Source: a virus (taxonomy: Duplodnaviria; Caudoviricetes). From it: 64,000 nucleotides of DNA. Of this stretch, positions 1,621-57,300 are shown in pieces. The DNA is taken from positions 64,001 through 128,000 of the IMG/VR virus record IMGVR_UViG_3300043105_000102; one strand, given 5' to 3'. The notes beneath the pieces were generated by a model, which saw nothing but the letters and a program-made list of their open reading frames with translations, was not told where the DNA came from and did no database searches. How positions within the stretch are numbered: position 1 is the first letter of the stretch; the number at the start of each line of letters is the position of its first letter. A program made the translations under genes and the position numbers.

Positions 1621-1860
1621 ATGTTTAAAGAAAACTCCGCAGAAGAGCTAACTGAGGAACGTAAACTTAAAGAATATATATATGATAGTTTGTGCTTAAG
1701 ATATAAGATTGCCAGAGAAGCACAGGCAAGACATGAGGTAAATACTCATTATAATGGCAATATAAAAACAGCCATAGAAGCTGCTAAAAGAGATGAAATG
1801 AGATTTTATCAAATTTTGGATGATGTAATTTTTAATATGGAAGGAGGAAATAAAATTTGA
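1621..1860 (+). CDS. Hypothetical protein
   Basis: 79 aa ORF with AAGGA RBS directly downstream of the promoter. Confidence 0.7.
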   Translation: MFKENSAEELTEERKLKEYIYDSLCLRYKIAREAQARHEVNTHYNGNIKTAIEAAKRDEMRFYQILDDVIFNMEGGNKI

Positions 1861-3382
1861 TTCTTACTAATAAGCAAGAAGAAGGTTTGAAGATTATTGT
1901 AGCCAGATACAAAGCAGGAGAAAAATATACTGTTGTATCTGGCTACGCTTAAAAGCTGGTGTCGGTAAAAGCGTTTTAGTTAGATTTGCTGTTGAAGCTT
2001 TGGGGGTGCCAGAAGATACAGTAGCTTATGCTACATATACGGGCAAGGCCGCCGAAGTTTTACGCAAAAAGGGTAATAAGGGGGCTATCACACTTCATAA
2101 GCTTCTATATAACTGCTATCCTCGTAAAGATGGCGGATTTTATAGAGAACCTAAAAAATATTTGGACTATAAAGTTGTTGTTGCTGACGAGTGTAGTATG
2201 ATCCCTAAGACTATGGTAGACCTTCTTTTGAAGCATAATGTTTATGTATTATTCTTAGGTGACCCGTTTTAAAGCACTGGGACGGGCTAAAATAATCTAA
2301 TTGCGGGAACCTCCTGAGAGTTCACTCTACTAACTTATTATAGTGATATGAATAAGGGCAAAGGGTAATGCCGGAGATTTAAGTAAAAACGAGTGAAATT
2401 GGACAATCCGCAGCTAAGTTTCTAAAAGGTTTTAGAAAAAAGTTCAACGACTATCGAAAAGTATTTAATTACTGAGTAGAGTACACTGCAAGTTTATGGC
2501 AGTGGAAATGGTTATCCTAGAAGATATAGTCTGCTCTCACGAGAAATTGTGAGCTTGGATATTCCAAGAGATAAGGTTTGCGCCCTTATCTAAACAGGGA
2601 GGCAGCTCCCACCAATAAATAAAGATGAAGCAAATGACCTTCTAGAGCATCCTCATATCTTTCTTGATGAAGTATTGCGCCAAGCTGCTGACTCAGAAAT
2701 TATTCGAATGACTATGAAAATCCGTAACAATGAGCCTATTCCTTATTTCAAAGGAACTGATGTTATGGTAATTCCAAAAGCAGAGTTAGTAAACTCTTGT
2801 TATACTTGGGCCGATCAAGTATTGGTCGCCACGAATAGGACTAGAAAATCTATCAACACTCAAGTTAGAAAGATGAAGGGACTCAGTGGGTTGCCGCAAG
2901 ATGGAGACAAGATTATCTGTTTGTCAAACTATTGGGACGATATTTCTATGACCGGAGATGCCCTAGTAAATGGCACTACTGGAACTGTACGCAACCCGGT
3001 AGGAAGAGTAAAGAAGGTTCCTTATTTCTTTAATATTCCCGAAAATTCCATTCATAGCATCCAATTCGACTTTGAAACAGAAGAAGGCTCTTGTTTCAGT
3101 GGCATTGAAATGGATGAAAAATTAATTCAAACTGGAAGAAAGGCTGTTGAAGATTATAGTGTTGCTTATCGTTTGAAAAGCTACGAAAAGAAAACCGGAG
3201 AAGAGTTTATTCCCAAAGAGTTTGACTATGGGTATGCTATTACGACTCATAAAGCCCAAGGTAGTTCTTGGCCAAAAGTACTAGTAATAGAAGAGCATTT
3301 TCCAACTATTCAAGAGGAACACGCCCGCCATTTGTATACTAGCTGTACAAGAGCTTCTTCTCGGTTAGTTTTGGTACGTTAA
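1857..3382 (+). CDS. SF1B RecD/Dda-like helicase, discontinuous: 1857-1949 + 1958-2269 + 2603-3382 (394 aa)
   Basis: TTG start after GGAGG. Joining the segments restores Walker A GYAGVGKS, Walker B VVADECSMI, GDPF|QLPP, RQA, YAITTHKAQGS and LYTSCTRA. Confidence 0.85.
1899..1957 (+). other. 14-bp hairpin + GCT-TAA-AA-GCT 8-nt coding gap (candidate translational bypass element)
   Basis: GTAGCCAGATACAA (1899-1912) / TTGTATCTGGCTAC (1933-1946), then GCT, TAA, AA, GCT, then GGT GTC GGT AAA AGC in a different frame. Confidence 0.6.
2270..2602 (+). mobile_element. Group I intron (333 nt, no ORF) in helicase
   Basis: Core elements AATTGCGGGAA, AATCCGCAGC, GTTCAACGACTA, AAGATATAGTC. P1 CCCGTTT/GGACGGG, P10 CTG/CAG; ends in G; restores GDPF|QLPP. 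Confidence 0.92.
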
Positions 3383-3948
3383 TGAATTTAGTAACAATTG
3401 ATTTCGACATAATTATGGCGCCTAGCATTGAAAGTTATAATAATCAAGTTTCTACTAGTCGGCCAATAGAAAAGATAAAAGAAGATTTTCCTTTTCTTCC
3501 AGAGTTTCCGGCTGATTTGTATATCTATGAGTATCTTACGAGATATATTTTAAGTGTTGCTAAACAGAATAAGAAAATATATTTTATTGACGACCATAGT
3601 GAAGTAGTTCAATTTTTTGAGACGCCCCCTTATAGCCTGTATAATATAGACCACCATCATGATATAGGCTATAATTGGGGAGCTTCACGTGATTGCGGCA
3701 ATTGGGTAAGATTTCTTTGGAAAGAAGGAAAAATTACTTCTTACACTTGGATAAACGATGAAAATTCTCAAAAAGCGCCAAAAAGAATCCAAAAGTACTT
3801 AACAGAAGAAAAGAACATTAGAGAGACTAATTTAGAATTATTAGCGCCAGAAACAGATGTTTTGGTATTATGTGCCTCTTATGAATGGGTGCCGCCCCTG
3901 TACCATCCTTTATTTTTGGCGTGGAAAACCATGATTGAATTTATCTAA
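3382..3948 (+). CDS. UPF0489/arginase-deacetylase-fold-like hypothetical protein
   Basis: TIDFD, DDH, NIDHHHDI and DCGNWV motifs; translationally coupled (TAATG) to the helicase. Confidence 0.55.
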   Translation: MNLVTIDFDIIMAPSIESYNNQVSTSRPIEKIKEDFPFLPEFPADLYIYEYLTRYILSVAKQNKKIYFIDDHSEVVQFFETPPYSLYNIDHHHDIGYNWGASRDCGNWVRFLWKEGKITSYTWINDENSQKAPKRIQKYLTEEKNIRETNLELLAPETDVLVLCASYEWVPPLYHPLFLAWKTMIEFI

Positions 3949-3963
3949 AAATTGTAGTATAAT
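3935..3963 (+). promoter_or_regulatory. sigmaA-type promoter of the polymerase gene
   Basis: TTGAAT-17 nt-TATAAT. Confidence 0.65.
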
Positions 3964-3990
3964 AGTAATAGTAAAGGGGATGATTAACAC

Positions 3991-4037
3991 ATTATGAAGA
4001 TACGAAACTACCCCGGTAGCCTTCATAATCACTAGAT
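3991..4037 (+). other. Hairpin + CAC-TAG-AT 5-nt coding gap (candidate translational bypass element)
   Basis: ATTATGAAG (3991-3999) / CTTCATAAT (4021-4029) with inner CTAC/GTAG stem, then CAC, TAG, AT, then ACT GAT TAT AGT in the frame of the 4053 ORF. Confidence 0.55.
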
Positions 4038-7000
4038 ACTGATTATAGTAATTTGCGACTTCGTGACTCTATTAACCGATATGATAAGCTTATTGATTAT
4101 GCTATTGAGTTAGGCCACGAAGTTATTGCTTTTACAGAGCATGAATCAGTTTCTAATGCGGTAAAAATCCAAAAGTATTACAAGAAGATTAAGTCCGACC
4201 ATCCCGATTTTAAAGTAATTCTGGGTAATGAGATTTATCTATGCCGAAATGGATTAAATAATGAAAATTTTGTTTCGGGAGAAGATAGATATTGGCACTT
4301 TATACTTTTGGCGAAAGATGCTATTGGCCATCAGCAAATAAGAGAAATTTCTACTAGAGCGTGGAAGCGTTCCTATAAGGCTAGGGGAATGCGGCGAGTC
4401 CCCACTTATTATCAAGATCTTGAAGAAATAATTGGGGCTAATCCCGGCCATGTTATTGGGTCTAGTAGTTGCCTTGGCGGCTATTTACCTTTTTTAATTC
4501 TTAAATATAGAGATAGCAGCAGCGACCAACTCTTATGGCTAGAAAGAATTAACCAATGGACTAATAGTATAGAACAGATTTTCGGAAAAGGAAACTTCTT
4601 TTTAGAGCTTCAGCCCTCAGAATCAAAGGAACAAACTTATGTAAATGAGTTTTTGGTTTCTTTTTCCTCTCAGGCAAATATTCCATATATTATCACAACG
4701 GATTGAAAAATAATGCTTATGAAGATTATTAAAGGAATAGAAGGAGGTGAAAAAATGCGTAGTTTAAAGTCTTTTTCGGCAGAAGAAAAACAGCAAATTT
4801 TGAACGATAAAAGAGAAAACCCATTCAAAAGATATTAGATAAAATCTATAGTAACGTACCCTTTTTTGCTTAAAGCGAAAATACATAAGCATTATAAATG
4901 ACAGTCGAGTTAAGCTGTGAAGCTTAATGTTAATCCCCGCTAACCCAGATTGCAATGGGGTGTGAGCCAATGGCTTGCTAACGGTTGAACTCCTGCAAAG
5001 GACAATCCCGTGCTAAATTACTGTAAAGTATAAATGTGTAACGACTAGTTCGGAGGAACGTAGAATGGAGATGCTACCATTCGAAAGACGGGGCATCTGT
5101 TTGAAGCAGCAGATGAAAATATAGTCTATTCTTTATAGCAATATAAAGTATTAAAGAGTCATTATGCTAGAAGGGAAGATAGACCAATTCATAAGGCCTA
5201 TTTGAATGCAGAAGATGGCGATAGAGAAGTTGATTCTTTTTATGCAACGACTTATATGATGGATACAGAGGAACTAGAGAGCCATTTAAGCTTAACAGAC
5301 GAACAACTAGAAATAGCTTATCAGAATATTAGGAAAATAAAAGAAATGTGTTCTGATTATAGCCTGTTAAAGCCTTTGAAGATTCCTGAGTTAGTTTGGA
5401 AAGAGCCATCTTATTTAATTAGTCCAAGCACTTATTATAAACAGATTCCTTATCTTCAAACCTTTGTTGAATCAGAGTATCGTGGAGATAATCTATTGGC
5501 ACAACATGTTGCAGATAGATTATCTTGGGATACAACACTTCAAAATCAAAAAACTTATGATGCACTAGATGAATGTTTAGAGATGACTTGGAAATCATCT
5601 TTAGTCAATAAAACACATTGGAGTGCCTACTATTTAAATCTACAAAAAATAATTGATATTGTCTGGGATGCTGGAAGTCTGGTGGGGCCATCAAGAGGTT
5701 CTGGTACTGGGTTAGTAACTAAGCTCAGTTAAAAATTCGTGAACTATATTGCTCATAGGTGTCTAGTATAATTACTAGGCTAACGGTTCAGAAAGCAGTA
5801 ATGTTATTATGAGTAAGGGAACCTAAGTCTTTAACAAAGATAAGGAAATACCGTGTCAAGTTTGCTGATTATATTAAGCAAAAAGATGTAGAGACTATCG
5901 AAAGGTGTAATAGCTGAGTAGAGTAAAGTGGAAGATGAGCTACCACTTGAAGCGCGAATTACTTATATATTAAGTAAAGAGATAGTCCATGCTATATAGA
6001 AATATATAGTGTTCAGTTGTCTTACTATATGTATTGAATATTATACAGATAAACGCATTGCGTGAAACTACCAAGACAAAAAGTTGGAGATTTCTTAATC
6101 CTAGTCGAGTATCAGTTTTGGATATTGATGTAGATATAGAAGGCTCAAAGCGTGAAAAAGTTTTACAAGCTCTAAGAGATAATTATGGAGAAGATTATGT
6201 AGCTAACGTTATTACTTTTGGCGTTGAAAAGTCCAAATCAGCTATCCTTACTGGTGCAAGAGGACTAGGCATGGACAATAATGACGCACAGTATTTTTCT
6301 TCTTTAATTCCTTCTGACAGAGGTATCACTAGAACTTTACACCAATGTTATTATGGAGATAAAGAAAATGGTTTTGCGCCCATACCTCTATTTGTCAAGG
6401 AAATGGACGAACATCCAGACTTATGGAACGTGGCGCAAAAGATTGAAGGATTGATTTGCCAGATGGGTATTCACGCTGGGGGAGTTATTTTCGTAGATGA
6501 ACCTTTTACCAACTCCACTGGCTTAATGCGGGCGACAGATGGTACAATTATAACAGCTTATGACCTCCATGATTCAGAAGATGTGAGTCAACGAAAGTTA
6601 AGGCTCCTAAATGCTTAATCACTTATCAGTGATGTTATATAGGCTCTTAGAAATAAGGTAAGTAAAAAATACCTATATGGCACCGGGGAAACCTAAGTCA
6701 AAAATGATATGGCAATCCCGGACTAAATTGGGTAGCTTCCAGCTATCCATAAATGTCTATCGACTATCCCTCGGAAGGGGAGTAGAATTACTATTGATAC
6801 GTAATTCAAAACAGCATTCTCTTTAAAAGAGTAAGATATAGTCAGTACCATTGGAAACAATGGAACAATACGCTTATCAAGTACGACCTATTATCGGTTG
6901 AAGGATTTGATAAAATCCATACTTGCTTAGATTTGCTTTGTGATAATGGATTGGTTGAAAGAAAGCCCACATTAAGAGAAACATATGAATCAACTATTGG

Positions 7001-10000
7001 CATTTACAATCTTGAAAGAAAAGATCCTAGAATGTGGAAAATGATTTGGAATCATGAGATCGAATCATTATTCCAAATGGAAAAACAGAGTGGTGTTCAA
7101 GGAATTGCTTTAACAAAGCCTCAAAGTGTAGACGATTTAGCCCACTTAAATTCAGTAATCCGGCTAGTAGCACAAGATAAGGGCGCTGAACAACCACTAA
7201 GTAAATTTGCTCGTTTTAAAAACGATATTACCTTATGGTATAAGGAAATGGAAGATGCCGGATTGACCCAAAAGGAACAAGACCTTTTAAAAGAATATCT
7301 CTCAGGGTCATATGGTATTTGCGAAGCACAAGAACTATTTATGGAGTTAGTTCAAATTCCTGAATGTGGCGGATTTGACTTAAACTGGGCCGACAGGCTA
7401 AGAAAGAGTATTGCTAAGAAAAATCCAGCCGAATTTGAACAATTAACAAAGGAATATTATGCACAAGTTGAAGCCAAAGGACTAAGCCAAAATTTATGTA
7501 AATACGTATGGCAAAATTTGGTCGGGATAAGCCGTGGGTAAAAATTTGCTCCCTGTAATAGAAATATTACTTGAACAATGCCGAGAATTGCTGGAAAGCT
7601 AAGTCGAAAGATATGCCAATCAGCAGCCGAGCCATTTAGCTAATGGAAGGTTCAACGACTATTCAGAAAGAAGTAGGAGAAATCCGAAGTACGGCACATC
7701 GTTATTCTACCATGATTTTAGATTAAAGGAGGTGTAAAAATGGATCAACAACAGATAATTGATTGGTATGTTAAAGATGGATTTTCAATAAATTATATTG
7801 CAAAAAATCTACTACATTGCCGTGCAAGTACTATTAGTAAAATTTTAAAAGAAAATAATATAGTCATTAAAAAAGGCGCTACTAAAAAAGTAAATATTAA
7901 TCAAGAGAAAGAAATTATTGAACTATATACTAAAGAACATTATACGCAAAAAGAATTAGCCGAAAAGTTCCATCGTAGTACTGATACAATTCATAAAATT
8001 CTTATTAAAAATAGTGTAGCTATTATTAGTCAACCCAAGATTAACAAAAATCAAATAGACACTTATTTTGATATAATAGATACAGAAGAAAAAGCATATT
8101 GGCTTGGATTTATTTTCGCTGATGGTAATATTTTTAACAATCAATTAACAATAGAAATTCATGAGCGGGATAGGGAGTTGCTAGAAAGATTTAAAATAGC
8201 GCTAAATTTAAACGGAAAAATTTCTCATAGAGTCAGAAAAAATACTTCTGTATGTTCTGTCAGAGTTGTAAGTAAACATCTATGTGAAACTTTGAGTAAG
8301 TACGGAATAGTACCTAACAAAACTTATGTTACTAAACATTTACCACAAGTTCCTGAAACAATGTTACCACATTTCTTACGAGGATTAATTGATGGTGATG
8401 GTTGGATTAGTACAGACAAATCTGGACATTATCATATTGGGTTTGTTAGTCACTTCCCTTCAGTGTGTGAAGATTTTAAAAGGTATTGCAATATATTAAC
8501 CGATGGAAAATGTAGAGCTGCAATTACACGCAAAGATAAAAATTATTCTGGATATTGTTTTCAAATTCAGAGCAAAGAAGCTACAAAATTGATAGCTACA
8601 ATTTTGTATAAAGACAATACAATTTGTCTTAGTCGAAAGTATCGGAGGGTAGAGCCGTTACTTGACTGAAAAAACGATGAAGATATAGTCTTGGGCGATA
8701 ACCAGTTATGAAAATAACATTCGCTCAGACGGCTTTAATTTGAGTCATACATTAGCATATTCCCTTGTGGCACTCCAAGAGATGAACTTAGCATTTAAGT
8801 ACCCTATTGTTTATTGGAACTGCGCTTGCTTGATAGTTGATAGCGGTAGCGTTGGTTCTGGAACAGATTATAATAAGATAGCTATAGCTATTGGTAAGAT
8901 GCGGAAAGCCAACATTAAAGTTAGTTTGCCTGATATAAACCAATCAGACTTTGGATTCAAACCCGATGAAAAGAATAATAGAATCCTGTGCGGACTTAAG
9001 AGTCTGGCAAATGTTGGCGATGAAGTAGTCATAAAAACTATTGACAACCGTCCTTATGTATCTCCAAAAGACTATTTGGATAAAGTTCATCCTAATAAGC
9101 AAGCTATGATTTCCTTGATTAAAGGAGGGGCTTTTGATTCTCTTATGGATAGAAAGCTTTGCATGGCTTGGTATATTTGGGAAACTTGTAATAAAAAGAG
9201 TAAAATTAACCTACAGAATATGTCGGGATTGATTAGATACAATCTTCTTCCCGAAGAAACAGAAGAACAAGTCATGGCGCGCCGAGTTTATGAGTTTAAT
9301 AGATATTTGAAAAGTAGCTTTAAGCAAGGTGACAAATATATATTAACCAATCGGGCTATTAGCTTTTTGAACGAACTGGGCATAGAACCAAGTTTTGATT
9401 CTGGACTTTATTTACCGATTAAAAAATGGGAAAAGGTCTATCAAAAATGGATGGACGTATTTAGAGAGTGGATGGCCGCCAACCACGATAAAATACTCCA
9501 AAAAGTAAATGATAATGTTTTCCGTGAAGATTGGGAGAAGTATGCTCTTGGTAATTATTCTAGTTGGGAAATGCAATCTTTGTGTTTCTATTATCATGAA
9601 CACGAACTCGCCCATGTTAATAATAATCTTTATGGCTTCGCTGACTTCTCTAAGCTTCCAGAAGAACCAGAAATTGTAAAGACCTTTGGGAGCGGTGGAA
9701 AAATTTTCCAGTTGCATACGATTTGCGGCACTTGTATTGCAAAAGACAAAAACAAGAGTACTGTTAGCTTATTAACTACAACCGGAGTAGTTAATATTAA
9801 GTTCAGAAAAGAATACTTCTCTATTTTTGATAAACGTATCTCAGAAATTGGCGCCGATGGTACTAAACATTGTATTGAAGAATCTTGGTTTAGTAGAGGT
9901 AGTATGATAGCGGTTCAAGGCATTCGTTCGGGAGATAATTTTGTACCAAAGAAATATAAAAGTTCAAATTCCCATGAGCTATATAAGATTGATAAAGTTT

Positions 10001-10068
10001 ATCCTGATGGCCGACTTGCTTTGCGCCATGATAGATATAAAGGAGAGGAGTCTGAAAGTAATGACTAA
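3994..10068 (+). CDS. dnaE: DNA polymerase III alpha subunit (DnaE-type), discontinuous: 3994-4032 + 4038-4703 + 5157-5712 + 6017-6588 + 6873-7539 + 8729-10068 (1279 aa)
   Basis: Joined sequence restores PHP LHNHTDYS, FTEH, GNEIY, TTD|SHY, GPSRGSGTGF, LDIDVD, GIHAGG, S|LIKYDLL, GYGFNLSH, LPDINQS and a C-terminal OB fold. Confidence 0.92.
4704..5156 (+). mobile_element. Group I intron dnaE-I1 (453 nt) with an enlarged P1 loop
   Basis: GCTAACGG, AATCCCGTGC, GTAACGACTA, AAATATAGTC core. P10 AATGAC/GTCATT; restores TTD|SHY. Confidence 0.9.
4755..4838 (+). pseudogene. Probable homing-endonuclease remnant (27 aa) inside dnaE-I1
   Basis: Strong RBS AAGGAGGTGA + ATG; MRSLKSFSAEEKQQILNDKRENPFKRY*; enclosed by a 12-bp stem (4710-4721 / 4884-4895). 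Confidence 0.55.
5713..6016 (+). mobile_element. Group I intron dnaE-I2 (304 nt, no ORF)
   Basis: P1 ACTGGGT/GCTCAGT; GCTAACGG, AATACCGTG, GTAGAGACTA, GAGATAGTC; the GGG T|TT junction gives GSGTGFVLLYVL. Confidence 0.9.
6589..6872 (+). mobile_element. Group I intron dnaE-I3 (284 nt, no ORF)
   Basis: P1 GAGT/GCTC, P10 TAAG/CTTA; CCGGGGAA, AATCCCGG, TCGACTA, AAGATATAGTC; restores EDVS|LIKYDLL. Confidence 0.9.
7540..8728 (+). mobile_element. Group I intron dnaE-I4 (1189 nt) with a LAGLIDADG ORF in the P8 loop
   Basis: AATTGCTGGAAA, AATCAGCAGC, GTTCAACGACTA, AAGATATAGTC; P8 CATCGTT/AACGATG flanks the ORF; GGG T|AC gives RGYGFNLSH. Confidence 0.92.
7740..8669 (+). CDS. Intron-encoded double-motif LAGLIDADG homing endonuclease with N-terminal HTH-like repeats
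   Basis: WLGFIFADG and FLRGLIDGDG motifs; RBS GGAGGTG. Confidence 0.9.
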   Translation: MDQQQIIDWYVKDGFSINYIAKNLLHCRASTISKILKENNIVIKKGATKKVNINQEKEIIELYTKEHYTQKELAEKFHRSTDTIHKILIKNSVAIISQPKINKNQIDTYFDIIDTEEKAYWLGFIFADGNIFNNQLTIEIHERDRELLERFKIALNLNGKISHRVRKNTSVCSVRVVSKHLCETLSKYGIVPNKTYVTKHLPQVPETMLPHFLRGLIDGDGWISTDKSGHYHIGFVSHFPSVCEDFKRYCNILTDGKCRAAITRKDKNYSGYCFQIQSKEATKLIATILYKDNTICLSRKYRRVEPLLD

Positions 10069-10924: not shown

Positions 10925-13900
10925 ATGAATATATTGAAAAGAAACGGCGCAGAAGTCCCTTTCGATGGGCAGAAAATTCAGAATGCAATTATTAAAGCTA
11001 TGGCCGAAGTTGGCGGCGGCCAAGATACAACAATTGCAGGAGACATAGCCGCCAAAGTTGAAGCTGACATCACTAAGAGTCCAGAAAAAGCAAATGTTGA
11101 ATCTATTCAAGATTTAGTAGAGGATTATTTGATGCAATCTGGGCGGAGAGATGTTGCTAGAACTTATATTAGATACAGATATAAAAAAGAAAATGAACGA
11201 GCTTTACAAGAAGATTTAAATCTTCGTTTTAGAAAGTTCAATGCTTTAATTTCCGGTGAGGATGAAGAATCTAAAAAGGAGAACAGCAATAAAGATACTC
11301 GTATTATCCCTACTATGAGAGACTATATTGCGGGCTTCTCTTGCCGAGATATAGCAAAGAACTATTTTTCAAAAGAGATTTGGGATGCTCATGAAGCTGG
11401 AATTATCCATATTCATGATACCGATTATAGTCCGGCTATGCCGATGTATAACTGCTGTTTAATCAATCTTGAAGATATGCTTCAAAATGGTACGGTTATT
11501 AGTAAGACTATGATTGAAAAGCCTAAATCTTTTAGGACTGCTTGTACTGTAACTACTCAAATTATTACCCAAGTAGCAAGTAGTCAATACGGTGGAAATA
11601 CGATAAATCTTGCACACTTAGCGCCTTTTGTTGATATTTCAAGACAAAAGATTCGTGAAAAAGTGAAAAATGAAATCATCGAAACTGAGGGAAACCTAGA
11701 TAAGATAGATGAAATTACTGAAAAACAAGTCCTTGAGGAAATTAAGGATGGAATACAAACTATTCAGTATCAGCTTATTACAATGAGTACAACTAATGGT
11801 TAAAAAATGGCCACGCTAAGATGGGGACATCTTAGAGGAGTAGACGGCTAACCTACAAATGTAGGGTGTCTAGATATTTCCTATTTAGGCTAACGGTGAA
11901 CACTAAAATATTTTTAATTTAAGATATAAATATTCTAAGGTAAAGGAGGGGGAAATTTGATAATATATAAAATAACTAATGATTTTAACAATAAAGTCTA
12001 CATTGGGCAGACTATATATAACGATCTTAAAAAGCGAATTAAAACTTATAAAAGTGAAATTCAATTTAGAGATGGTACAAGGCCAATCATTCAAGAGATA
12101 AGGAAACATGGTATAGACCATTTCACTTGGGAAGTTCTTGAAAAAGATATTAATAGTCAACAAGAGCTGGATGAAAAAGAAATTGCCTATATTAAAGAAT
12201 ATAAAAGTTTAACATCTCAAAATGGGTATAATGCAGATGTTGGTGGAAGAGGACAAGGGCCTCGTTCTGAAGAAACAAAAAAGAAAATAGGAGATGCACA
12301 ACGAGGGAAATTAAACCATATGTACGGAAAAACCGGAGCAAAAAATGCTACTTCTAAGAAAGTCATGGAATTAACAACCGGAAAAACCTATGAATCAGCT
12401 TGCGAAGCAGCAAGAGATCTTGGAATCAATTTTTCTCATATTTGTGCCACAGCTAGAGGCAAAAGAGGCAGTACAAAAGGATATGTTTTCTTATATGTTG
12501 ATGAAAATGGTCATTTAATTATACCAAATAGAATGACTAAAATTAAAAATCCCTCTTTAAGAAAAAAGCTTCATAATTTATACCCGAATCTATTTTAAAT
12601 TAAAATATCATGTCAATACCGTGCCAAGCTTCTACCTATGTAAGAAGAAGGTGTAACGACTATCCCTTATTGGGAGTAGGATTAAGGTGGAAGCCCTTAA
12701 CCCGAAAGACCGTCCATCTAGAACAGATGAAAAGATAGTCTAAGCTATTTAGAAATAAATAGAGGGGTCTGCAAGCCCCATTTACGTCAATTTTTATGTG
12801 GATTGACTCTGATTACGATAAACAATTACAACACGATTTAGCTCTTGTTATTAAAGAAGTTTTAAAACAGCGCATAGAGGGAGTAAAGAATGAAAAAGGT
12901 GTACCTATTACTACAGCTTTTCCCAAATTACTTTATTGCCTTGACGAGAATAATATTCATGAAGACTCTGAATATTGGTACTTAACAGAACTGGCCGCAG
13001 AATGTAGTGCAAAGCGTTTAGTACCAGATTATATCTCAGCTAAGAAAATGCGTGAACTTAAGAATGGAAACGTATTCGGCTGCATAAACAATAACTGTGC
13101 CTAATGATAGCGATATTATTAGAAAACTTGTCTAAACGGAGAAAGTCTTTTAACTAAGATAACTTACCGTGCTAAAAAGAAAGCCTAACGACTATCCCCG
13201 AAGGGGGAGTAGAATACAAGCTGTTGGTATTCGAAATGGCAAGCTTCTCAATAAAAAGAGAAGGTGATATAGTCTAATCTGCATATATAATCCATAAAAT
13301 GCAGCAGTTCATAAGAGAACGTAATAGATGTAGCGAATCTATTGGAATGTTAATGGGGATGCCGAAGTTTCCTTCAAGATTATATTGACCCAGAAACTGG
13401 AAAACATAAATTCTGGGGTCGATTCAACCAAGGGGTCTGTACTTTAAATCTTGCCGATGTAGCTCTATCTTCTGGTGGAGATTTTGACAAATTTTGGAAA
13501 ATTATGGATGAAAGGCTCCAAATGTGTTATGAAGTTTTAATGGTTCGTCATAACGTATTAAAAGGTACCAAGTCTGATGTGGCGCCAATCCTTTGGCAGC
13601 ATGGTGCTTTAGCAAGACTTGCTCCCGGAGAAACCATTGATAAGTTGCTTTATAACGATTATAGTTCTATTTCATTAGGATATGCTGGACTGTATGAATG
13701 TATCCATTATATGACTGGTGGTTCCCAACTAGATGAAAAAGGATATAATTTTGGTATGGAAGTTATGAAGTGCCTTAAAAGTGCTACCGATAAGTGGAGA
13801 GAAAAAACCAATATTGGGTTCTCCCTTTATGGCTCTCCCATTGAAACAACCACTCAAAAATTCGGTAAAGGCCTTAAAAAGAGATTTGGAATTATTAAAG

Positions 13901-19694: not shown

Positions 19695-21490
19695 TTATCC
19701 GTTGCACCCAAAAGATAGAGGATAACCAGTATAAGGATTGGCTACGGGGTATGCAGGAACGGGGCAGGGCTTAAGCTCATTCACCAGATAAGCATTCTGA
19801 GCTTGCTGAGAAATCTGGAAATTAGCAGTCTGCAATTGACTATCCTTGGCGGCCAGACGATCACGCAAGTCTTGCATTGTGTTAGCATTGATTAAAGCTC
19901 TAGTTTGTTCGGCTTCATTGTGAATAGCGGCAGTAATATCGCAAGTATTACGGTAATTCTCTGCTCTAACGCTATCTATATTGCGGTTTGTGTCACCAAT
20001 TTGTTATCTTATAGGCTCTTTATCCTATAACTCATATAGTTTCCTATATGTTCAGACTATATCTTCTTCCCTAATTATTATTAGGGAGTTCGGCACTCGT
20101 GTTGGTATTATTGTTTGTCATAACTCAACCATTAGTCGTTGAACCTTCTAATTACTTTTACTGACTTTCATTAGCTTGGCTGCTGATTAGCATACTTACA
20201 AATGTAAACTTAGCTTTCCAGCAATTCACCGAATTATTTTTCTAATAGTTACCTATTAGGCTGCCATGATTGTTTAGCAGCAAGACTGCATCGCATAACG
20301 GCTATCCGCAATATTAGAGTTTACAGTATCGAAGCCTTGAGAGACAGCACTAAATCCTGTGCATAAATCACGCTGTAAACTGCCAAAGTTGTTCAGGAGA
20401 GTAGTGTTGTTGGAATAAAATCCATCACACAAACCTTGCTGAATGCCACGAACGCCATTTTCAACTTGCTGGAAGTTCATGTCTTGGCAAAGCTCTCCTC
20501 TGGTCAGGGCGCCTTGAGTTGAAGCATTGTTATTGCCCCAACCATTTCCTCCCCATCCGCCGCCCATAAAGACGAACAGGAAAAGTATAATTATCCCATT
20601 GCTGTTATCCTACTGGCTTTTTGTCCAGTAGCTCTTATAGTTTATAGTTCCTATAAGTTCAGCGCACCTTTTCTACTCCAATATTAGAGTAGTCGCGGCC
20701 TCTTGGAAAAACTAAATAGTTCTGAGTTATTAAAAAACTCTGCTTTATATCTATTGCAGAAATGAAAAAGTATAATTATGTACTTTACTGCGGCTGCTGT
20801 TTAAAACTCTAGTAATAGCACGTTTGTTAATGTTTAAAAGCGCACTAGCTTCAGAAGTACTCATAAAAACAAATTTTTCACCTGTAGTTAAATTTGTTGC
20901 TAAAATCGGTTTACTCTTTATCTGGTCTTTTTCTTTTGTCCATTCAAGATTTTCGACTTTATTGTTAAGTGGATTTCCATCTTTGTGCTTAACATAAGGG
21001 AGAATATTTGGATTATCAAGAAAATATAAGGCCACAAGTCGATGGATTCTAAAAGTCTTTTTAAGCCCATCTTGGCAAAAGGTATACGTTAAATAACCTT
21101 CGTTGTTCATGTGCGGTTCCAAAATTTTCCCATTTTTAACATTTTTGATATTACCACAGTTTGAAACAGCATAATTATTGAACGCATCAATAATTATATA
21201 CTTTTCCATTTCGTATACTCCTTTAATTGACTTTATATAGTAGTCTTAAAGGACTACAACATATTCAGTATGTCTGCGCGTTGCCCCTGACTGTAGTTCT
21301 TACAGCCTTCGGTTCTGATTCCCATCTCAGGGTTCCAGCTTAATTCCGCGATTATTCGATACAAGTTACCTTGTAAAGTGGCAAATATTTATACTTACCA
21401 AGCTCCCATGCCATCGCCAAATCCCTCACGATTGGCACCAGAAGCAGTTGCAATGTCGGCTAAAGAATAGCCACTGTTTTGATTGAACAT
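19695..21490 (-). CDS. Membrane-anchored Gly-rich/coiled-coil protein (module gene 3), spliced: 21490-21397 + 20596-20276 + 19996-19695 (238 aa)
   Basis: GGAGG RBS + ATG 21490. Splicing gives MFNQNSGYSLADIA...GAWWIIILFLFVFMGGGWGG...MQSCCCDTNRNID...PCPVPAYPVANPY; total 717 nt in frame. Confidence 0.88.
19997..20275 (-). mobile_element. Group I intron (279 nt, no ORF)
   Basis: On - strand: P1 GCTGCT/GGCAGC, P10 TCAT/GTGA; AATTGCTGGAAA, AATCAGCAGC, GTTCAACGACTA, AAGATATAGTC; T|GT restores CCC. Confidence 0.92.
20597..21396 (-). mobile_element. Group I intron (800 nt) with a NUMOD4-HNH ORF
   Basis: On - strand: P1 TGGT/GCCA; AAGCTGGAA, AATCAGAAC; P7 GCGCA/TGCGC; P3 TCGCGG/CCGCGA; T|GG restores WW. 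Confidence 0.88.
20751..21209 (-). CDS. Intron-encoded NUMOD4/HNH endonuclease, possibly degenerate
   Basis: YAVSNCGNI, GYL, IHRLVA, HKDGNPLNNKVENLEW, C-terminal NUMOD1-like STSEASALL; AAGGAG RBS. Confidence 0.8.
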   Translation of the reverse strand: MEKYIIIDAFNNYAVSNCGNIKNVKNGKILEPHMNNEGYLTYTFCQDGLKKTFRIHRLVALYFLDNPNILPYVKHKDGNPLNNKVENLEWTKEKDQIKSKPILATNLTTGEKFVFMSTSEASALLNINKRAITRVLNSSRSKVHNYTFSFLQ

Positions 21491-54384: not shown

Positions 54385-57300
54385 TTAATTTGTAGATGAT
54401 GATGTAAAAATCCCGTTAATAAAATGCAACGTTACCGTTCCATCAGTAGTTGGTATTTCTACATCTTTAGTGCCTCCATAAGACATTATTCCGCCAGAAC
54501 TTACCGCGTAGTTTCCAATAAAATAATAATTGCCATTAACGATTATACTACCATTCTTAAATGTAGCACCGCCATCACAAAGTAAACCATCAACAACGAG
54601 CATACCATTAATACCAAGGGACTTATAAGTATCACTATAGGTCATTTTCGTTTGTCCAAGAGAAATTACGCCACTACCAAAAGTAAGATTTCCATAACTC
54701 ATATTACCGGTTTCAGTGTTAATTTCAAAACCGCCAATTTTTCCAGCAGTAGCTGTTAATTTGCCTTCACTATTTACTTGAAATACTCCATTAGCGACGC
54801 TTAGACCATTAGTTCCTAGATAAATCCCACTTCCACCAAAATCTTTGTCCTTAGTGTACAGAGCACTACTACCAATAGTAAAACCGCCAATTTTTCCACC
54901 AGTAGCTGTCAGGTTATCACAAGTCACAGCTCCACTCCATGAAACTTTAAAATCATTACCGCCATCACTAGTATCTTGTATCCGTAAAGGAAACTCACTA
55001 GCACCGCTATTAATTAAAATAGACTTGTTCGTGTTACTACTATTAAAAGCCTTTATCATAAAATCATACGCAGTCAATTTACCTGTAGCTAAATCAAATC
55101 TTAATCCAGTACCAGCGCTTGCATCATAATCTGCTGACTGTAATAAGTAACTTGAAACTTCCTTACCACTACTATTTTCATATGTTCCAACTTCAAATAA
55201 AATTTTTCCTTTATGCCTTATCGTGAAATAAGGTTCACCAGATAAACTGGAAAGTCTTACATAACTATTATTTACGTTATTACCGCTACTATCTTTTTCC
55301 CAATCTTTTGTCCAAGAAGAACGCATATAAAGACGTCCTTTTGCAAGGTCGAGCAGAGTTCCAGAGGTTCCATCAGCCCAGTTCTGAGAACGTAATGCAA
55401 AAGCTGTCTTTGTAATATTTATTAAATCTACCGAAGCTTCTGTACTGCTATCTTCGTAATGAATTTTAAAATAAGGATTACCATTACTGTTTAATGAAAT
55501 ATAAGAACCCTTATGAGAATCACCTTCAGTACTGTTAGTTGCTTGAATAGAAAAATTATAAGCAGTTAATTTACCTGTAGCTAAATTAAAATTAACCCCT
55601 GAAGAACCACTTTCATAATCATCAGATTGCAAAAAATAACTATCTGAACCAACTTTAAACAATGGATTACCAGCTTTACTCTGTACTAAAAAGTAAATCT
55701 TATTTTCATCTTCGGTTCCATCTTCATTTGTACGTTTGCAAGGGTCTATTAAAATTCTTGCTTGTGTCGTAGTACCTTGTGTTGTAGTATATTTCTCACT
55801 TCTGGTATCAATAATACCATCATCTAAATCTATTTTCATGCCACCATCAGAGCCACTAGTTCCCCAAGCGCTACTTTTAATAACACCAGTATTACCATCT
55901 ATAAGAATTTGGCCTTTACCTGATTTCCCGAAGAAAGCAGTACCATCAACTTTTAGACCAAAACTTTGAACACCTTCATGATAACCATATAGTCCAATTT
56001 TCTTAACCGCAGAGTCACCACTCCCTGTAGCTACATCACCCATCAGAACGCCATGGAACCTATTTTGGTTATCTTTATAGCCAGCTCCTACCATCGTTGA
56101 TAAGATTGTACCATTTTTTTCATCTAAAGTCAAACTTCCATCCCAACTATTTATTGCGGAAGAAGCATAAGAATCTTGATAAATTCGAATAGGTTGCGTC
56201 CATACAAGGCTATCTCCAAGATAACCATTAACTGCAATTTGTACCCCGTTATCTTGCAGGAACATAGAAGGAACAGTCAGTGTTCCTCCTTCTGATACTT
56301 GTGGATAATAATTCGTGCTAGTTATTGCAACGCCATCTTCTGTTCCTTGAGTATCATCGCCATAGGCCATTTTCCAAGTAATATCAGAAACTTCTTTAGT
56401 CCTATTATTTTCAAAAGTATAAAGCTTATAAGAGTCTTGGTAGTATTGGGGGCTAGTGCCAGCGGTATTATACACAATTTTGGTCGCACCATCAAAAGCT
56501 GTATATGTATCATCTAACTTTACGGGTATGCACAAAAAGGCTGTCAGGTTAGTAGTCGTATCAGCAATGCCCGTATCAACTTCACTAATCATGCCTCGTA
56601 AGATGTAGAATTGACAATTTAAAAAATTTGTGGTATTATTTACCCATAAAGAGCAATCATTTCCGTTCTGTTCTTTCTCTATTCCGCCTTTCCCTTCACT
56701 ATACCAATCATAACTAAATCTATCACTTTCAAATTCATCTGTAATATCTTTCTTTTCATAATTATATATATGAGGAATAACTTTAACTTTATCTTTACTA
56801 CTAAAATTTAAGGCGTTTACTTTATCTTCAAACTCTAGAGTAAAAGTATAATTAGTTCCATTAGAACCACTAGGGCCAAAAGATAAAGTATAAGAAGCTT
56901 CATAAGTAATATTATTTTTAATTACTTGACAATATACTGTATTATTTATAGCGGTTTGACTATAATATTTCTTTATATGAAAATATTGTTCAGCATCTGT
57001 AGCTATTTCATCACCAGCACTACGATCTTCGCTTATACTAATACCTGTTCTTATAATATTTAAATAGCCGGAATCTATATACGCTTCATTACTATTATAA
57101 TCTTTACCTTCTACTAATTCAATCATAGTATTTTGTAAAGGAATTTTCCAAGTAATTTGTTCAGCAGTATCTAATCTATCATCACCAGTAATTAGAGAAC
57201 TATACTTAGCACTTAAAATCCTTTGCTTAGTATTTTCAGCAGAACTCATTATTTCTCCAGTATCACTATAAATGCAATAGATACCGTTATACCCATCTTC

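Follow-up and report, generated by a model that had tools for sequence, protein, structure and literature searches.

Stop-led gaps in two phage replication genes as probable sites of short-range translational bypassing

The window analysed here is a 64,000-nucleotide (nt) stretch, bases 64001-128000 of one 155,944-bp phage contig (IMG/VR record IMGVR_UViG_3300043105_000102; 37% G+C), and coordinates below are window positions except where the genome or another contig is named. Near its beginning lie two replication genes, one for a Dda/RecD-like helicase and one for the DNA polymerase DnaE, and each is interrupted near its 5′ end by a few bases that begin with a stop codon. The helicase gap falls inside the Walker A loop and the dnaE gap inside the HxH motif of the PHP domain. 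An earlier note on this DNA had proposed that a ribosome hops over these gaps with the help of a hairpin just upstream. Here we describe the two sites, their counterparts in related phages and the reasons for thinking that both are probably short-range translational bypass sites.

Results

Two replication genes share one kind of interruption

The helicase gene has a strong ribosome-binding site (RBS) of its own and a TTG start, from which 31 codons can be read before a TAA at 1950. The first 30 residues are 53% identical to those of an uninterrupted homologue (L001). Within this leader, coding sequence forms a perfect inverted repeat whose 3′ arm ends on the base preceding the last sense codon. 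We call that codon the take-off codon; the stop follows it directly, and the gap that begins with the stop closes with a landing triplet that matches the take-off triplet at 3/3 positions (GCT, GCT). Skipping the 8 nt yields Ser-Gly-Tyr-Ala followed by Gly-Val-Gly-Lys-Ser, the same as in uninterrupted homologues (L001 and 80 further loci), which across the junction read Gly-Tyr-Ala-Gly-x-Gly-Lys-Ser/Thr. The hairpin folds with a predicted energy of -25.9 kcal/mol (z = -6.7), and 0 of 200 shuffled sequences fold as well.

The dnaE gene repeats this design on a smaller scale. Its leader has 13 codons and ends Leu-His-Asn-His, and the 3′ arm of its hairpin also ends on the base preceding the last sense codon (-9.3 kcal/mol, z = -4.0; 0/200 shuffles fold as well). 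Coding resumes at 4038, and a 5-nt skip yields Leu-His-Asn-His followed by Thr-Asp-Tyr-Ser, as in uninterrupted relatives, where the junction reads Leu-His-Asn-His-Thr/Ser-Asp. Sequence and homologues therefore agree with what the earlier note had said of the two genes, namely that each is broken near the 5′ end, in a core motif, by an 8- or 5-nt stop-led insert; the common geometry it described, an inverted repeat of coding sequence ending before the last sense codon and then the stop, is present at both sites. The features of the two loci are:

1841-1848, plus strand: helicase RBS (read from the sequence)
1857-1859, plus strand: helicase TTG start (read from the sequence); the open reading frame (ORF) is 1857-1952
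1899-1912 and 1933-1946, plus strand: arms of the helicase 5′ hairpin, 14 bp perfect, loop 20 nt, formed by codons 15-30
1947-1949, plus strand: helicase take-off codon GCT (Ala), the last sense codon ahead of the stop; GCC in the relative G001
1950-1957, plus strand: helicase 8-nt gap, made of TAA (1950-1952), AA and the landing triplet GCT (1955-1957); homologues read Tyr-Ala-Gly without a gap
1958-2270, 2271-2602 and 2603-3382, plus strand: remainder of the helicase gene as exon 1b, group I intron and exon 2 (Pfam AAA_19/AAA_30 and UvrD_C_2; Rfam Intron_gpI 2259-2553)
3973-3980, plus strand: dnaE RBS (read from the sequence)
3994-3996, plus strand: dnaE ATG start (read from the sequence)
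3991-3999 and 4021-4029, plus strand: arms of the dnaE 5′ hairpin, 9 bp perfect, loop 21 nt; the 5′ arm contains the start codon
4030-4032, plus strand: dnaE take-off codon CAC, the second His of HxH; the relatives L013, L083 and L200 take off at the same position
4033-4037, plus strand: dnaE 5-nt gap, made of TAG (4033-4035) and two bases, with the landing triplet GAT at 4035-4037
4038-10068, plus strand: remainder of dnaE, with exons at about 4038-4703, 5157-5712, 6017-6588, 6873-7539 and 8729-10068 and four group I introns (tblastn, Rfam)

Both genes are full-length despite five introns in total. The earlier note had stated that the upstream segments have their own RBS and start and that the genes are otherwise intact, which colinear homologues bear out. 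A helicase homologue of 392 aa aligns in three parts, residues 1-30 upstream of the gap, 30-136 between gap and intron and 138-392 downstream of the intron; residues 10-1282 of an uninterrupted 1283-aa DnaE (L005) are colinear with the five window exons in tblastn. The Pfam PHP match in the dnaE body begins at profile position 7, and the HxH part therefore sits in the leader. Gene callers predict a truncated DnaE from TTG 4053 (P0001), and the next in-frame helicase start, TTG 2000, falls downstream of the P-loop. Given what homologues read across the two junctions, functional proteins therefore need skips of exactly 8 nt and 5 nt.

Independent assemblies confirm that the inserts are real bases in genes that are otherwise complete, as the earlier note had supposed. 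The dnaE insert is present in Logan assemblies from three Sequence Read Archive (SRA) runs, one of which also covers the helicase insert. Two of the three run contigs are identical to the window, one of 5762 nt covering both sites and the other the dnaE site only. The third represents a variant strain, with 8 mismatches in 1139 nt and an unchanged dnaE site. This strain, L009 (SRR11792607; L009 1140-1419), matches the window to 4827 and diverges from 4828 on, which points to a difference between strains in what the first dnaE intron contains.

Stop-led gaps recur in relatives of DnaE

The lead to relatives came from protein matches to the first dnaE exon that had odd N termini, with the HxH region in another frame. 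DNA was fetched for 88 DnaE relatives from ENA and IMG/VR and for 37 from GTDB genomes, some 125 metagenomic loci in total; the contigs come from gut and rumen metagenomes, and binning places them mostly with Bacillota. About one quarter are interrupted (24/88 and 5/37, respectively), and one rule holds in all of these: a stop (TAG, TAA or TGA) follows directly on a sense codon, and a few bases later the match to homologues resumes with the next codon. Four neighbouring codons serve for take-off, those for the first His, the Asn, the second His and the Ser of Asp-Tyr-Ser.

Gap lengths in the family are 4, 5, 6, 7, 8, 10, 11 and 12 nt. They include all three frame classes, with in-frame gaps of two kinds: L025, which reads TCT, TAG, TCT, and L034 with L077, where 12 nt lead from CAT to CAT. 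This spread over every frame class excludes a fixed frameshift. The three relatives that share the take-off position of the window's dnaE have gaps of 5, 7 and 11 nt, ending in TAT where the gap is 7 or 11 nt and in AAT where it is 5 nt (L200). One lineage, with take-off at the first His, has TAA, TGA or TAG as its stop and a variable gap interior, while the last triplet is constantly CAA. Leaders upstream of the gaps are conserved as protein.

Take-off codon and last gap triplet resemble each other. Of 23 distinct versions, 19 have at least two of the three positions in common between them, including 8 with a perfect match, and the mismatches are of the two-out-of-three kind. Matched positions total 50; random reassignment of the landing triplets among events gives 26.9 on average, and 0 of 20,000 such shuffles reach 50. 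The earlier note had also pointed to a shared 11-nt pattern, TARAWRCTGRT, read from the stop; both window sites carry it, but it is not conserved at the homologous sites of G001 and of other relatives.

Two further observations concern these relatives. Several of the longer gaps, of 8-11 nt (L012, L068, L020 and L013), have purine-rich, Shine-Dalgarno-like runs right after the stop. In L010 (ENA contig ERZ13405066 NODE_67367), which has an interrupted dnaE, the public gene call translates only if TAG is taken as Gln: the caller joined an out-of-frame leader to the gene body, and the hop site was thus misread as stop-codon reassignment.

Gaps occur together with upstream hairpins

For each interrupted dnaE locus we took the longest perfect stem whose 3′ arm ends in the 24 nt preceding the stop; the median length is 7 bp (range 5-14), and stems reach 10-12 bp if one mismatch or G-U pair is allowed. 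The 3′ arm ends 1-5 nt before the stop. The equivalent 24 nt of 51 distinct uninterrupted relatives give a median stem of 5 bp and a maximum of 7 (Mann-Whitney p = 2e-10, a value that, like the other p-values here, is optimistic, as events partly related by descent are treated as independent).

Stem sequences differ among relatives, and the register of the hairpin moves with the take-off codon. Where take-off is at His or Asn, the stem joins the start codon to the first His codon and the codons after the start to the Ser-Leu codons. This pairing with Ser-Leu-His codons is why dnaE leaders begin Met-Lys-Thr/Ile. Different stems are used where take-off is at Ser. Compensatory changes occur in the stems, for example between the window and L200, so the homologue alignment that the earlier note had proposed as a check finds both the co-occurrence of gap and hairpin and the compensation.

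The helicase cassette is shared with a distant phage

The unit of leader, hairpin, stop and gap, which we call a cassette, is much rarer in helicases. The gene is uninterrupted in 80 of 80 IMG/VR relatives and in four of five related genomes, and the hairpin is absent from this site in the uninterrupted helicases that were read (L001, and G004 among the four related genomes). The interrupted one is in G001 (IMG/VR 3300035499_000343; 155,986 bp), the nearest related genome, which aligns to the present one over only 45 kb at ~70% identity and carries a dnaE cassette too.

The G001 helicase has an 8-nt gap at the same codon, with take-off GCC, stop TGA and last triplet TCC. Between the two phages 47 of 48 nt of the hairpin are identical, compared with 67% over the following 313 nt. 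Counted at third codon positions, identity is 25/31 before the gap and 42/104 after it (p = 8e-5). Take-off and landing covary in their third bases, which are T and T in the window and C and C in G001.

A second possible pairing was seen around the helicase gap. In the window (1945-1962) and in L173 (~2586-2603, minus strand), the 5 bases ending at the take-off codon can pair with 5 post-gap bases, with the gap as the loop. This 5-bp pairing includes two G-U pairs in the window where G001 has G-C, and its folding is no better than that of shuffles.

Cassettes come and go beside homing endonucleases

A quick IQ-TREE search on 106 DnaE N-terminal domains gave a tree on which the four take-off classes require at least 10 changes. 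Near-identical DnaE proteins can differ in whether they have a cassette (L089 and L088; L015 and L018; L034 and L077 versus L026, L027 and L030). In such twin loci the DNA is near-identical from the landing point on, and the block made of RBS, start, leader, hairpin, stop and gap is replaced.

In L077, ~1.05 kb of extra DNA just upstream encodes a GIY-YIG endonuclease with helix-turn-helix repeats, whose stop codon lies at the dnaE RBS. GIY-YIG genes also precede the cassettes of L034, L048, L012 and L083, and HNH genes precede those of L025, L180 and L187. Of 25 cassette loci, 8 have a GIY-YIG or HNH homologue in the 1.5 kb upstream, against 8 of 85 cassette-free loci (p = 0.009). In phage T4, the gene 60 cassette travels with a homing-endonuclease element, MobA (Manning and Atkins, bioRxiv 10.1101/2022.08.31.505936). 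Because module-like exchange and nuclease neighbours mirror the relation of MobA to gene 60, they suggest that the gaps arose as target-site disruptions made tolerable by the mobile element.

The earlier note had offered scars of lost introns as another origin. We found no intron at the interrupted codons among the 125 relative loci, and what the relatives link to cassettes is instead free-standing GIY-YIG and HNH genes.

Relatives of zinc-finger/HNH-type genes also lie near cassette-free dnaE genes, some distance from the start (L088 912-1187, L023 730-963, L212 296-457). These elements may not yet have invaded the dnaE 5′ end, or may have left it.

The ORFs beside the window cassettes, 1621-1860 and 3382-3948, have no Pfam match, and the nearest GIY-YIG homologue in the window is at 11957-12550.

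Genome context

The same pattern of hairpin, codon and stop was sought elsewhere in the genome, as the earlier note had proposed. The scans looked for a hairpin whose end lies 0-5 nt ahead of a stop, together with a landing match and a downstream open frame without its own start codon. Five whole-genome scans on hairpin, landing match and open frame gave no third cassette beyond the helicase and dnaE sites. Two candidates were rejected. One, at genome position 38063, falls in another frame of a protein that has many short Gly/Asn/Asp-rich repeats (genome 37900-38200, outside the window); the other, at genome position 60472, is an intron-exon boundary. Applied to G001, the scan recovered that phage's own dnaE site, gave false positives at 57165 and 135790 and found no further site; it missed the G001 helicase site, which was recovered through tblastn.

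Rfam matches to group I introns lie at 2259-2553, 5756-6009, 6614-6864 and 7530-7799 on the plus strand and at 20033-20285 on the minus strand. They sit in the helicase gene, in dnaE and in one minus-strand gene, in a genome that is unusually intron-rich.

A cluster of 12 transfer RNA (tRNA) genes (G000:C1:24060-27659) lies outside the window, ~36-40 kb upstream of it. Its tRNA-Ala (anticodon GGC) is cognate to the helicase take-off and landing codons GCT and GCC. The cluster's tRNA-Asn (GTT) and tRNA-Ser (TGA) decode take-off codons of relatives; tRNA-His is absent from it.

Literature searches returned no paper describing stop-led gaps in dnaE or helicase genes. Among cultured phages, none with a cassette turned up; identity to the best cultured relatives reaches 45% at most, and Enterocloster phage PMBT24, the one checked, is uninterrupted.

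Discussion

The anatomy of the two sites, their presence in independent assemblies, their recurrence in other phages and the constraints on their sequence are direct observations. A stop at the first gap position, lengths that are independent of frame, a match between take-off and landing and a 5′ hairpin together make up a signature of bypassing. Judged from these comparisons, both interruptions are likely to be short-range programmed translational bypass sites, or stop-hops, and we put the probability at roughly 0.75. The miniature programmed hop with a 5′ hairpin that the earlier note had envisaged thus gains comparative support, from the stop-led gaps, the frame classes, the landing match, the co-occurrence of hairpins and the hairpin shared with G001.

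We infer the hop itself, its efficiency and the role of the hairpin from this anatomy, and picture them as follows. A ribosome would start upstream, translate 31 codons in the helicase gene or 13 in dnaE, and pause once the take-off codon (GCT or CAC) occupies the P site and the stop the A site. At this pause the 3′ arm of the hairpin would lie within the mRNA exit path, with the 5′ arm already outside the ribosome. Zipping of the hairpin could then draw the mRNA forward by about the observed distances while the peptidyl-tRNA releases the take-off codon and re-pairs 8 or 5 nt downstream, with an identical GCT in the helicase mRNA and a near-cognate GAT in that of dnaE. Decoding would restart at the next codon and give one full-length protein with its Walker A loop or PHP HxH motif intact. 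As for origin, the relatives suggest that RBS, start, leader, hairpin, stop and gap constitute a portable module that was spread or left behind by free-standing homing-endonuclease elements, and that its gap would disrupt conserved DNA targeted by such nucleases and so could confer immunity.

Several points weigh against this interpretation. Nascent chains of 13 and 31 residues are too short for a peptide signal of the gene 60 type, and short peptidyl-tRNAs readily drop off. The dnaE landing triplet of the window is a poor partner: GAT and CAC are identical at 1/3 positions, or at 2/3 if third-position pyrimidines are taken as equivalent, with a G-G clash at the first position. Structure across or after the window gaps is no better than in shuffles (z ~0.25). 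The dnaE hairpin spans the start codon and could instead control initiation, and the near-identity of the helicase hairpins in the window and G001 could reflect recent exchange of the module and not selection on RNA structure. The shared descent of events noted above flatters the statistics. The association with nucleases is also not exclusive, as several cassettes have no nuclease neighbour, the cassette-free L090 and L186 have one directly upstream, and no homing-endonuclease gene adjoins either window cassette.

If bypassing occurs, it is possible, though we think it unlikely, that it has also been recruited as a regulator, holding helicase and polymerase at a low or condition-dependent dose like the gate that the earlier note had envisaged, and so is more than a tolerated relic of a mobile element. 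Two cassettes stand in two replication genes of one genome with an endonuclease gene adjoining neither, and both are retained in the distant G001. A dnaE hairpin over the start codon would couple initiation to bypass, and the phage brings a tRNA-Ala (GGC) cognate to the helicase take-off and landing codons. However, close relatives manage without cassettes, and the patchy distribution and the GIY-YIG/HNH link fit selfish spread better. A bolder form of this idea, which we hold just as tentatively, is that these would be the first natural, efficient short-range stop-hops on bacterial-type ribosomes. A start-proximal 5′ hairpin alone, unaided by structure in the gap or by a long nascent-peptide signal, would then drive a forward slide of 4-12 nt with two-of-three re-pairing, and both cassettes would have been kept after loss of the endonuclease to set helicase and polymerase dosage by ribosome load, release-factor activity or tRNA-Ala(GGC).

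The gaps might instead be removed from RNA, by micro-excision with a ribozyme acting in trans or by an endonuclease and a ligase, leaving a continuous mature mRNA. We consider this improbable. The genome is rich in group I introns, the hairpin could act as a recognition element, and matching end triplets make the boundaries ambiguous, as they are at splice-like junctions. Yet gaps of 4-6 nt lack a ribozyme core, and the group I cores that Rfam detects are all at genuine introns. Excision needs no in-frame stop at the first gap position, whereas all versions have one, with the three stops interchanging, and it does not predict that take-off codon and last triplet match in the reading register. 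No phage or bacterial system is known to remove so few bases from an mRNA in this way.

Equally improbable is a +1 or -1 shift at the stop, or readthrough, with the gap translated into one to four extra residues in the motif. Both window gaps are 2 modulo 3, which fits a -1 shift; +1 shifting is known to be stimulated when a stop occupies the A site (prfB); and the in-frame relatives, with gaps of 6 and 12 nt, could in principle be explained by readthrough. But there is no slippery heptamer or prfB-like site, the P-site tRNA would re-pair poorly one base off at every site, and gaps of 5, 7 and 11 nt at one take-off codon would demand different shift directions. The extra residues would fall in the Walker A loop or between HxH and Thr/Ser-Asp, where no uninterrupted homologue has an insertion, and the match of take-off and landing would be left unexplained. 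Stop-codon reassignment or a suppressor tRNA was rejected, since none of the 12 phage tRNAs (0/12) is a suppressor and readthrough would leave the frame unrestored.

Least credible of all is that the genes are inactive or split, being pseudogenes of a defective genome, N-terminally truncated from an internal start, or artefacts at inverted repeats: callers do predict a DnaE that begins at TTG 4053, the genome is known from metagenome-type assemblies alone and the PHP active site might be dispensable in some polymerases, but three run assemblies, the variant strain included, keep the dnaE insert and one covers that of the helicase, both genes are complete end to end, a helicase restarted at TTG 2000 would be a dead ATPase, the leaders are conserved as protein, the design recurs in dozens of contigs from unrelated projects, and confinement to two sites in two essential genes, here and in G001, is unlike general decay.

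If short-range bypassing is indeed what happens here, nature has supplied a mutational series in dozens of variants, which differ in gap length (4-12 nt), in which of four take-off codons they use, in whether the landing is perfect or imperfect and in which of several hairpin registers they have. They would serve the question of which minimal signals make a bacterial ribosome slide, and they offer a direct test of the model in which pairing of the exiting mRNA is the driver. They may also show how homing-endonuclease elements could make a conserved target immune while adding no more than a few bases to it. For annotation they are a warning, as essential phage genes with such sites come out of genome pipelines as truncated or broken.

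Natural bypassing is known in very few systems, namely T4 gene 60 and its homologues, the yeast mitochondrial byps and, as candidates, the Hau3 blocks. Bypassing in T4 gene 60 was reportedly described by Huang in 1988. The resemblance to the present cassettes is close in outline. In both, an essential phage DNA-metabolism gene is interrupted, a stop comes right after the take-off codon, the landing site matches the take-off site, a 5′ stem-loop forms from mRNA leaving the ribosome, and relatives are polymorphic for presence or absence, with homing-endonuclease genes adjoining. The 5′ stem-loop of gene 60 is proposed to act as a forward driver (Wills et al., bioRxiv 10.1101/2024.12.09.627546), an idea that the geometry of the present sites fits. 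In detail the two differ. The gap is 50 nt in gene 60 but 4-12 nt here (8 and 5 in the window), and gene 60 has a stem-loop that takes in the take-off codon and the first part of the gap as well as an internal Shine-Dalgarno sequence, neither of which is found in the window gaps. The Shine-Dalgarno-like runs in the longer gaps of relatives recall that small internal element, whereas the short gaps, both window gaps among them, are without it. Gene 60 relies on a long nascent-peptide signal for which there is no room here. The present hairpins abut the take-off codon, and in dnaE include the start codon; landing often pairs at two of three positions; and the endonucleases are of the GIY-YIG or HNH type in relatives, with none beside the window cassettes. 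There is no sequence homology between the gene 60 cassette and those described here.

The mitochondrial byps of Magnusiomyces capitatus, attributed to Lang in 2014 and Nosek in 2015, are reportedly 27-55 nt long, GC-rich and themselves hairpin-forming. They share with the phage gaps their number as short inserts in essential genes, two-out-of-three landing and a spread like that of mobile elements. Unlike the phage gaps, they place an unused sense codon in the A site and are read by mitochondrial ribosomes with relaxed decoding.

The earlier note had spoken of a candidate new recoding system, which claims too much; the cassettes are better described as a short-gap variant of translational bypassing, with the 10-nt blocks of Streptomyces phage Hau3 as the closest natural precedent (PMC10732093). 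The Hau3 terminase gene has two such frame-disrupting blocks, for which bypass was proposed (Smith 2013; PMC10732093), and a junction peptide was detected by mass spectrometry in E. coli for a stop-codon variant (PMC10732093). Hau3 resembles our phage in having short blocks in an essential gene, a slow-to-decode codon at the 5′ end of the block, two sites per phage, and a proposed 5′ stem-loop and landing codon. The trigger there, however, is a rare sense codon, UUA, tied to the host bldA tRNA and life cycle, while here every gap starts with a true stop. The hosts of Hau3-like phages are Actinomycetota, as against the gut and rumen Bacillota-type phages considered here; and only a handful of Hau3-like cases are known, with no described link to endonucleases, against the dozens of variants reported here.

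The simplest counterpart is artificial. Synthetic stop-hops were made in E. coli (Weiss, Dunn, Atkins, Gesteland 1987; reviewed in PMC5009743), and in 2016 that review (PMC5009743) stated that a natural in-frame stop hop was unknown, although short-distance counterparts had long been expected. In the synthetic constructs the peptidyl-tRNA moves from the codon before a stop to a matching codon just past it, and L025, with TCT, TAG and TCT, has that exact layout. The synthetic hops were inefficient and had no stimulators; the natural sites described here have a strong 5′ hairpin and stand in genes whose expression is required.

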